Of a stretch of 64,000 nucleotides of DNA, positions 14,810 through 56,384 are shown in pieces (positions within the stretch are counted from its first letter, which is position 1; each line of letters begins with the position of its first letter). The stretch is from Syntrophales bacterium. Its GTDB lineage: Bacteria > Desulfobacterota > Syntrophia > Syntrophales > UBA6807. A program made the position numbers and the translations under genes. A model generated the notes under the pieces. It was not told the origin of the DNA and made no database searches. It was given only the letters and a program-made list of their open reading frames with translations. The stretch covers positions 64,001 through 128,000 of the forward strand of contig JAXGPA010000002.1 of NCBI GenBank assembly GCA_040767195.1. The letters are read 5' to 3'.

Positions 14810-14853
14810 TCCGTTCTGATTTTTAAAGTAAATAGGATATTCAGTTTGCATCG

Positions 14854-14926
14854 GTCTCCAGGGGTGCTGAGAAGCTGAGAAATACCCTTTGAACCTGATC
14901 TGGGTAATGCCAGCGAAGGGAGAGAC
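14854..14926 (+). ncRNA. TPP riboswitch
   Basis: GGGGTGC..GCTGAGA..TACCCTTTGAACCTGATCTGGGTAATGCCAGCGAAGGGA, upstream of the thiamine genes. Confidence 0.95.
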
Positions 14927-15031
14927 TACCGTCATCCCGTTGAAAGATCAGTTTCTTCTTCCCGTTGTGATCCCTCCCCGGACACGGCGTTTTCCACCCC
15001 AATCCCGGATACCGATAGAAAGACGGTCCTT

Positions 15032-23368: not shown

Positions 23369-23516
23369 TCGGTGGATGCGCGGAAGAGGGGTGAAAATCC
23401 CCCGCTGCCCCGCAGCCGTGAAGGGAACGAAAACCCAAGGAAGCCACTGTTCCGAACCTGTCGGGATGGGAAGGCGGGTGAGTAGGTTGCCCGAAGCCGG
23501 AAGACCCTTCCACCGA
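23369..23516 (+). ncRNA. Cobalamin riboswitch
   Basis: GGTGAAAATCC, CTGCCCCGCAGCCGTG, GCCACTG, GGGAAGGC, B12 box AAGCCGGAAGACC; P1 tcggtgga/tccaccga. Confidence 0.92.
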
Positions 23517-34520: not shown

Positions 34521-34531
34521 TGCCGTCAAGG

Positions 34532-34566
34532 GTGGCGCAATTCCTTTGAATTGCGCCACTTTTTTA
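34532..34566 (+). terminator. Rho-independent terminator after the tRNA
   Basis: gtggcgcaattc-cttt-gaattgcgccac followed by a T run. Confidence 0.85.
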
Positions 34567-34675
34567 TTTTCTCGGCCTATATAAAACAAAGACGCGAAAC
34601 CGATTCTCCAAAAATTTTGACAAAAAAGAATATGAGAAGGTAAAGTATGCCGGAAAACAGGAGTTGGAGGGTTTC

Positions 34676-34891
34676 ATGGATAAAAAAGTCATTATTTACG
34701 GGAAAGATGGCTGAGGCTACACATCCGACGCCCGGAGGGCGTACGGCGAAAAGGCGGATTACGTCGATGTCAAGAAGGACCCGGTAAAACTCGAAGAGAT
34801 GCTCAAGCTTTCCGGCGGATCCCGGAGAGTCCCGGTCATCGTGAAGGGAGACACGGTCGAAATCGGTTACGGCGGGACCTGAGGGGTCTGA
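34676..34891 (+). CDS. 71-aa glutaredoxin-like selenoprotein with two Sec (UXX-star-type)
   Basis: GGAGG RBS; MDKKVIIYGKDG-U-GYTSDARRAY...RRVPVIV...IGYGGT-U-GV-stop; SECIS-like hairpins at 34725-34746 and 34893-34911. Confidence 0.85.
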
Positions 34892-34999
34892 AAACGGACC
34901 GTGGGTCCGTTCGTACCGGATGGTTCGGTGTTCCAGGATGTCATCCCGTCCGACGGGAAGAGGGATCCGTGCTCTGCCAGGACCGGCCCCCCTTCAGGA

Positions 35000-35176
35000 T
35001 TGGTGAACTCGTAAAAAGTAACTAAAACGACGACTTCGTAAAAGGTTCGAGATCAAGGCTTGCGAATCCCGGGGAATGAACAACCAAAGGGGACGGATTT
35101 CAAATCTGTCCCCTTTGGTTGTTCGTGACGAGGGATGACGCGTCATGACAAGATCGGCCTTTTTACGAAATTGTCA
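35000..35176. mobile_element. MITE-like structured repeat, copy 2 (inverted), with GGGGAC hairpin core
   Basis: ttggtgaactcgtaaaaag..gacgacttcgtaaaag..ctttttacgaaattgtca; 23-bp-arm hairpin at 35078-35124. Confidence 0.75.
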
Positions 35177-55547: not shown

Positions 55548-56384
55548 GTGAGAAAAGCCCTTCCATGGCTGATTCTGTTCTGGGTGGTTCTCCTGGGGTG
55601 TGCCTCGAGCCATGAGCTCCGGGCGACCGCCCAGATCCTGGACTCGAAAATATCGGCGCTGGAAAGGGATGTCACCGCTTCCCGGGACGGCGTGGCGGAT
55701 ACCCGTGACAGGTTGGACAAGCTGGAAGACAGCGTCAAGGCCATCCAGCGCTTCCAGGCCGACACGGGGGCCGACATGACCGCCCTGAGAGCGGAGATCC
55801 AGCGTCTCCGGGGGGCTACGGAGGAAACGCAGGAATCCCTGAAAACCGTCAAGGGGGAAGCGGCTTCGGAAAACCAGGCGTCGAAACTGGAAGAGCTTCG
55901 CCTGCGAATGCAGTACATGGAGGATTTTCTCGGCATCGGAAGGCCGGGAGGAACGGCCGACAAGGCCAAAGAGGCATCCGAAGCCGCCGCCGGCCCGCCG
56001 CCGGCCAAACCGGACCGGGAAAAGGCGTACAATGACGCTTACGAGGCCTTCAAGGCGGGCCGATACGCCGACGCCCGGAAAAGGTTCGAAGAATTTCTCG
56101 CCGAGCACGGAAAATCGGAATACGGGGACAACGCCCGGTTCTGGATAGGCGAGTGTTATTATTTTGAAAAGGATTACGAAAGAGCCATTCTCGAATACGA
56201 GAAAGTGATCACCGAATATCCCCGGGGAAACAAGGTGCCCAATGCCCTCCTGAAGCAGGGCCTTGCCTTTCTCGAACTGGGGGACAAAAACAGCGGGCGC
56301 CTCCTCCTGGAAAAAGTCATCCGGGAACACCCCAACACGAGCCCCGCTAGAATCGCCAAGATCAAGCTATCGTCGATCAATTAG
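55548..56384 (+). CDS. cpoB: Tol-Pal protein YbgF/CpoB
   Basis: Coiled coil plus TPR (NARFWIGECYY, KVPNALLKQG); follows pal. Confidence 0.9.
   Translation: MRKALPWLILFWVVLLGCASSHELRATAQILDSKISALERDVTASRDGVADTRDRLDKLEDSVKAIQRFQADTGADMTALRAEIQRLRGATEETQESLKTVKGEAASENQASKLEELRLRMQYMEDFLGIGRPGGTADKAKEASEAAAGPPPAKPDREKAYNDAYEAFKAGRYADARKRFEEFLAEHGKSEYGDNARFWIGECYYFEKDYERAILEYEKVITEYPRGNKVPNALLKQGLAFLELGDKNSGRLLLEKVIREHPNTSPARIAKIKLSSIN

Follow-up and report, generated by a model that had tools for sequence, protein, structure and literature searches.

Within the 64,000-nt stretch of DNA analysed here (the window), positions 34676-34891 of the forward strand, stop included, hold a gene for a 71-residue glutaredoxin-like protein with in-frame TGA codons at positions 13 and 69, which we consider, with a probability of about 0.9, to be a double selenoprotein of UXX-star family 1. 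The first-pass annotation of this DNA had drawn attention to a hidden 71-aa gene with a ribosome-binding site, an ATG at 34676, two in-frame TGA codons and a third TGA as its stop, along with a U-G-Y-T at the CxxC-equivalent position and a VPVI motif, all of which are there in the sequence. It had also described the gene as invisible to the ORF track, and the list of ORFs of 60 aa or more indeed lacks it. The features of the locus are as follows.

34617..34646, + strand: sigma-70-type promoter-like site TTGACA-18-TAAAGT (consensus match only, 10/12)
34666..34670, + strand: ribosome-binding site GGAGG, 5 nt before the ATG (from the sequence)
34676..34891, + strand: coding sequence of the UXX-star family 1 protein, 71 residues, stop included, starting at the ATG at 34676 (translation, profile match, relatives)
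34712..34714, + strand: TGA codon 13, predicted selenocysteine (Sec), first position of the CxxC-equivalent U-G-Y-T (Cys counterparts, including C-G-Y-T in the homologs P0005 and P0030)
34728-34742, extended 34725..34746, + strand: SECIS-like hairpin 1, acgccc-gga-gggcgt, within the coding sequence (loop GGA 19 nt past UGA13)
34829..34834, + strand: Val52-Pro53, cis-proline-type motif of the thioredoxin/glutaredoxin fold (invariant in 21/21 aligned sequences)
34880..34882, + strand: TGA codon 69, predicted Sec of the terminal U-X-X-stop (TGA in 68/68 complete copies; Cys in P0030)
34889..34891, + strand: true stop TGA after Gly-Val, 9 nt before the hairpin 2 loop (variable stop in relatives)
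34893..34911, + strand: SECIS-like hairpin 2, aacggacc-gtg-ggtccgtt, in the 3′ untranslated region (loop GTG 18 nt past UGA69; covariation)

The gene lies between tRNA-Leu/ribF and a lipoprotein-like gene, and its reading frame has a codon score of +15.3, as opposed to -41.4 and -30.6 in the other two forward frames. The TGA at codon 13 stands in the context G-K-D-G-U-G-Y-T, and Val52-Pro53 continues into V-I. Since its own promoter-like site (three such sites were found against 0.6 +/- 0.9 in shuffles) sits behind the terminator of the tRNA-Leu gene at 34528-34563, the gene is likely transcribed alone. One contig from an RNA library spans 34671-34949 with 0 differences from the window, and a DNA contig spans 34491-35034 with a single difference, at 34527; as these contigs reproduce the gene, its TGA codons are not an assembly error. 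Among the differences listed for another public contig, the two that fall within the gene are synonymous. Two RNA-library contigs of one study match the extent of the gene almost exactly (34671-34949 and 34667-34968), which we do not count as evidence of expression because 28-29 of the stretch's 30 bins are covered by these libraries, which may include DNA.

Several other elements of the window deserve mention. The intergenic element at 35005-35135 contains a perfect hairpin of about 24 bp. Blastn (24 rows) located some of its segments at about 15 further sites in the genome; it is likely a REP-like or miniature mobile repeat. A TPP riboswitch is found at 14850-14937 and a cobalamin riboswitch at 23382-23505, the latter ahead of a cluster that, by the names from our ORF reading, comprises a TonB-dependent receptor, a binding protein and ExbBD-TonB-like genes. 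ARAGORN further called a tRNA-Pro(CGG) at 55932-56015 on the reverse strand that Rfam left unconfirmed; with another tRNA-Pro(CGG) on contig C1, this one is perhaps spurious or a remnant.

Family membership was scored on the protein sequence with C standing for U, using curated HMM cut-offs. The resemblance to UXX-star-type selenoproteins that the first-pass annotation had noted was borne out by NCBIfam model NF041114 (NF041114.2; UXX-star selenoprotein family 1), which matches residues 5-71 over profile positions 1-70 of 70 with 109.3 bits against a cut-off of 72, and with 95 bits, again above the cut-off, when scored from the DNA with its stops. The parent subfamily NF041212 (80 bits, cut-off 66) and the Pfam Glutaredoxin model PF00462 (34.8 bits, cut-off 22.9) are likewise exceeded. 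Scores below the respective cut-offs were obtained for family 2 (NF041211; 52.6 against 100), family 3 (NF047338; 50.6 against 97), the HUGP/GUXX-star fusion (NF045501; 52.1 against 325), the glutaredoxin 3 model TIGR02181 (27.1 against 90) and the YruB and NrdH models. With an active site of UxxT, not CxxC or UxxC, the protein falls outside the classical dithiol glutaredoxins.

A 2026 review (PMC13188914) characterizes UXX-star family 1 by a UxxT motif and two Sec residues under the name "Distant Grx-like protein 1", which also appears in PMC9312934; the double Sec is therefore not new, and what we have is an ordinary representative of a family already catalogued, its two Sec residues included. 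We read the name UXX-star as "U, two residues, stop". For related UXX-star families the review cites Haft and Tolstoy 2025. Family 1 goes unmentioned in the accessible portions of the preprint 10.1101/2022.07.06.499078 (the preprint of Haft and Gwadz 2023) and of the main text of PMC2398784. The literature we searched contained no experimental study of this family.

Like the rest of family 1, the protein matches the profile over its full length and has the UxxT motif, two Sec residues and the U-X-X-stop end. It differs in having U-G-Y-T in place of the usual U-P-(Y/F/H)-T, and its gene, solitary after tRNA-Leu, has next to it neither the cNMP-domain gene nor the rubrerythrin-like gene that adjoin it in many relatives. 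Fold and tail are also common to the NF041212 subfamily, families 2 and 3 and HUGP/GUXX-star, the protein here lacking a fused domain. An AlphaFold2 model built from 21 sequences with Cys for Sec (pLDDT 90.6) adopts, from residue 1 to residue 67, the glutaredoxin/NrdH fold (best Z 9.4, with 63 residues aligned at rmsd 1.8; TM-scores reaching about 0.75) and has two short strands, one at 51-52, just ahead of Pro53, and one at 69-70. These two strands may pair with each other, and by analogy with the fold Pro53 would be in the cis state. Compared with glutaredoxins and NrdH-redoxins (3ic4, 1h75 and 3zij; cGrx1/cGrx2 entries 7c10 and 4tr0), the fold, the position of the active site and the Val-Pro motif are kept, whereas Thr16 takes the place of a second Cys in the motif; and in contrast with glutaredoxins, the chain stops where their last helix would start, with the second Sec at this very place.

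Related proteins argue for the coding nature of both TGA codons. The protein is matched in 32 of 61 related genomes, and 87 of 201 genomes score above the family cut-off. We examined 70 loci, 30 from the 61-genome search and 40 picked from the 201-genome table (20 carrying two TGAs and 20 at most one), which gave 73 tblastn rows; five were dropped, two because a contig end truncated them and three because they lacked the N-terminal motif (L046 and the second hits in L089 and L099). In the remaining 68 complete copies the C-terminal site is TGA without exception (68/68), and the site of codon 13 is TGA in 50 and Cys in 18, proportions that do not describe a random sample since the 40 loci were hand-picked by TGA count, and copy counts that overstate the number of events because kin are not independent. 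Two of the dropped hits appear to be broken paralogs: L046 has an in-frame TAA inside its CxxC motif, and the second copy of L089 has no recognisable N-terminus.

The codons that follow the second TGA are informative in the 49 short-form copies. Codon 70 is Gly in 45 of them, with all four Gly codons in use, codon 71 is Val or Ile in 49/49, and codon 72 is a stop in 49/49 (TGA 29, TAA 16, TAG 4). Because codon 72 varies among stops and codons 70-71 are conserved as residues, we take codon 72 to be the true stop and codon 69 to be coding. A homolog profile search, of which the best 150 of 513 were read, adds cysteine counterparts; the first-pass annotation had proposed a check for homologs with Cys or TGA at positions 13 and 69. 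Both TGAs are conserved, and P0030 (51% identical) has Cys at both sites, in C-G-Y-T and T-C-G-V. Cys at the site of residue 69 is also seen in P0065, P0098 and P0141 among these 150; a word-indexed search returned 10 proteins only, none with Cys at 69. Residue 14 is Gly in this copy and Pro in 48 of the 50 U13 copies, yet the Cys homologs P0005 and P0030 share this Gly14, and P0030 is an intact homolog.

As to the hairpins, PMC13188914 describes a bacterial SECIS (bSECIS) model with a G in the first two loop positions, a loop of 3-9 nt, a stem of 4-16 bp, a spacing of 16-37 nt and an MFE of at most -7.5 kcal/mol. Both hairpins of the window satisfy our in-house script version of it (-14.0 and -15.7 kcal/mol), in line with the SECIS geometry claimed earlier. 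The loops had been placed 20 and 19 nt after the two UGAs, which is the position of the first loop base; 19 and 18 nt intervene, and the figures agree. Taken singly, neither hairpin differs significantly from shuffled sequence (z = -1.80 for hairpin 1 and -0.81 for hairpin 2), and Rfam gave no match at either. The hairpins are beyond chance as a family feature, not hairpin by hairpin. Under a strict test, a G-loop hairpin 16-22 nt downstream in a script version of the published bacterial model, 32 of the 50 U13 sites pass, 29 of them at exactly 18 nt, as do 42 of 68 C-terminal sites (26 fail), compared with 4/18 C13 sites, 3/68 when counted from the stop codon and 15/238 ordinary TGA stops on contig C6. 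In the long subfamily hairpin 1 is found in 6/6 U13 copies versus 1/12 C13 copies. It is partly determined by the protein, as it overlaps the conserved Ala-Arg-x-Ala codons and persists in three of five short C13 copies, which makes the C13 control weak in short forms.

For hairpin 2, an alignment of 20 copies revealed changes on both sides in all eight base pairs (8/8) and an invariant loop G (20/20). Of the cells, 85.5% are paired, whereas shuffles reach 64.8 +/- 2.3% and slid controls no more than 47%. The covariation score of 0.574 (0.235 +/- 0.033 in shuffles) was reached in 0/500 shuffles; the structure tested was the window's own hairpin, which favours hairpin 2 somewhat. In naked RNA past UGA69 another hairpin that includes the stop codon is preferred, leaving the SECIS hairpin a pair probability of 0.14. 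With a ribosome-like mask over 8-11 nt past UGA69, hairpin 2 forms with a probability of 0.94-0.99, falling to 0.38 with 13 nt masked, and it is gone with 8 bases past UGA72 masked. These foldings fit the earlier suggestion that the UGA stop is told from the second Sec codon by spacing. All four fdhA-like genes of this genome have one TGA each with a hairpin behind it at a like distance.

The main result against the selenocysteine reading is the failure to find selC and selD in the assembly. The first-pass annotation had pointed to the Sec machinery as a check, which came out in part: selA and selB are present above their family cut-offs, and selC and selD were not found, probably owing to missing sequence. 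For selD, the best family match is 38 bits against a cut-off of 125, and tblastn with the SelD of a same-genus genome gave no match. The tRNA-Sec model of Rfam (RF01852; 150 of 357 candidates scored) found only ordinary tRNAs below its cut-off, and a pattern search, relaxed ARAGORN and blastn with the selC loci of five relatives uncovered no more than a 3′ fragment of selC. This fragment, at C1:720241-720279, is 39 nt long, has 90% identity with the 3′ terminus of the relatives' tRNA-Sec and adjoins a low-GC ORF of 406 aa; it resembles an attachment site left behind when an element had once integrated at selC. In an assembly rated 98.83% complete, we also failed to find serS, any tRNA-Ser, tRNA-Asn, moeA, uvrA, mfd, nadA and alr (an atypical SerRS would escape the search). 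In the same-genus genome G001, selC is flanked by uvrA, mfd, nadA and moeA, and none of the 10 genes called at that locus has an orthologue-level match in our assembly. Since serS, tRNA-Ser, moeA, uvrA, mfd and others are missing as well, an assembly gap probably accounts for selC and selD and is the simplest reading; the piece left out of the assembly would be a sizeable one. In relatives, tRNA-Sec is present in 5/5 and selD in 3/5 (not found in 2/5); selA occurs in 58 of 61 genomes, and the three without it are also without a match to the UXX-star protein.

The neighbourhoods of relatives were counted over loci 1.9-11 kb long. Among the 49 short-form loci, a gene for a 161-aa cNMP-domain protein is present in 23, one for a 155-aa rubrerythrin-like protein in 19, and both in 17, as opposed to 0/18 for the other loci. 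A three-gene unit of cNMP-domain protein, UXX-star selenoprotein and rubrerythrin-like protein recurs, for example, in L074, L103, L023 and L110. The present genome encodes a 45% identical rubrerythrin-like protein on C1, away from the UXX-star gene, and the cNMP-domain protein has no match in this assembly. Long or CxxC paralogs (L043, L045, L079-L091, L093, L047 and L048) have arsenic-resistance-like genes nearby in 17 of 18 loci and, with the exception of L047, have 6-13 extra residues inserted in the tail ahead of their terminal Sec. Haft and Tolstoy 2025 may have reported this split in neighbourhoods before. At L070:5793-10240 (G001:C15), a UXX-star gene lies tail to tail with a selB that scores above the TIGR00475 cut-off and is 43% identical to the selB of our genome, possibly a second SelB paralog; the pair comes after genes for a double-cubane reductase and the ATPase that activates it.

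Several readings compete with that of a functional double selenoprotein. Recoding of UGA13 alone, with UGA69 as a real stop after 68 residues and a single Sec, would suit the 66 of the best 150 representatives that end right after a GG(T/S)-type motif, and it could also draw on the existence, in naked RNA, of a fold more stable than hairpin 2. Recoding twice in one message is likely inefficient, and truncated products probably exist. Yet the invariant TGA at codon 69, the use of all three stops at codon 72, codons 70-71 conserved as residues with free third positions, the four homologs with Cys at site 69 and the covarying 3′ hairpin together make a one-Sec protein very improbable. A variant genetic code with TGA as Trp or another residue could be suspected from database proteins with Trp at both sites, as in the W that follows the motif in 12 of the best 150 representatives and in P0003 and P0007; we rejected it, leaving it a negligible chance, as TGA is the commonest stop of the genome (1111 of 1726 long coding ORFs) and homologs without recoding carry Cys at the TGA sites. 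Public proteins with TGA translated as Trp (P0003, P0012-P0014 and others) often run past the true stop and are likely gene-caller artefacts; this frequent readthrough points to gene callers with the wrong code. There is likewise little reason to believe that the gene is a silent relic, a normal family member in a lineage that has just lost Sec synthesis. The missing selC and selD in a nearly complete assembly, the mismatches in the 3′ selC fragment, the solitary position of the gene and its unusual Gly14 would fit such a relic. Against it, serS, tRNA-Ser and other genes are missing too, including those that flank selC in the same-genus genome; selA, selB and the four TGA-containing fdhA-like genes are intact; relatives have tRNA-Sec (5/5) and mostly selA (58/61); and the two strain differences listed within the gene are synonymous.

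A more serious competitor accepts the same double selenoprotein and questions its function: the two selenium atoms might bind a metal or metalloid (Hg, As, Cu), making the protein a chaperone or trap without diselenide cycling. According to the review cited above (PMC13188914), the Sec of UXX-star proteins may ligate a metal or bind unknown substrates. The loci of long or CxxC paralogs also speak for metal binding, 17 of 18 holding an Acr3-, ArsP-, ArsC- or ArsR-like gene; however, such genes are found at 0/49 short-form loci, the type to which our gene belongs, where cNMP-domain and rubrerythrin-like genes are the frequent neighbours instead, and the glutaredoxin fold and Val-Pro motif have been retained. 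We regard metal binding as rather unlikely.

For the double selenoprotein we lean, with some reserve, towards a small redox carrier that would combine a minimal glutaredoxin fold with a U13-U69 diselenide. During translation, SelB bound to each hairpin would deliver Sec-tRNA at UGA13 and at UGA69. At UGA72, the stem of hairpin 2 starts one base past the codon and would lie, physically melted, inside the ribosome, so that this codon would terminate. In glutaredoxins, the residue before the cis-proline is the docking place for substrates and glutathione, next to the first Cys. As the chain stops short of the last glutaredoxin helix, the tail with U69 would lie in the substrate groove beside Val52-Pro53; strand 69-70 would pair with 51-52, where these ligands dock, and bring U69 next to U13. 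The usual resolving Cys of CxxC being Thr16 here, U69 is the only candidate for a resolving residue; it could resolve the U13 intermediate as a diselenide in place of glutathione. The model makes the U13-U69 diselenide plausible. Glutathione synthetase (gshB) scores above its cut-off in 0/61 genomes, which argues against a glutathione-dependent activity as far as the gshB route is concerned. The most promising pointer to a substrate or reductant is the rubrerythrin-like protein encoded nearby in relatives. More speculatively, and at odds that we put rather low, the U-X-X tail could be a built-in glutathione substitute in anaerobes without glutathione, threaded through the substrate groove to form a long-range diselenide. 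The family would then have divided its work, the short forms acting for a rubrerythrin-like di-iron protein next to a cNMP-domain protein and the long forms for arsenic-resistance operons.

As such, the gene represents an annotation miss now corrected and one more copy of a catalogued family. At a length of 71 residues, with two UGAs very likely recoded and, three codons past the second, a UGA that acts as stop, it provides a compact natural system for the discrimination of Sec from stop by the ribosome, and the split in neighbourhoods, rubrerythrin-like and cNMP-domain genes with the short forms and arsenic-resistance-like genes with the long ones, offers concrete candidate partners.
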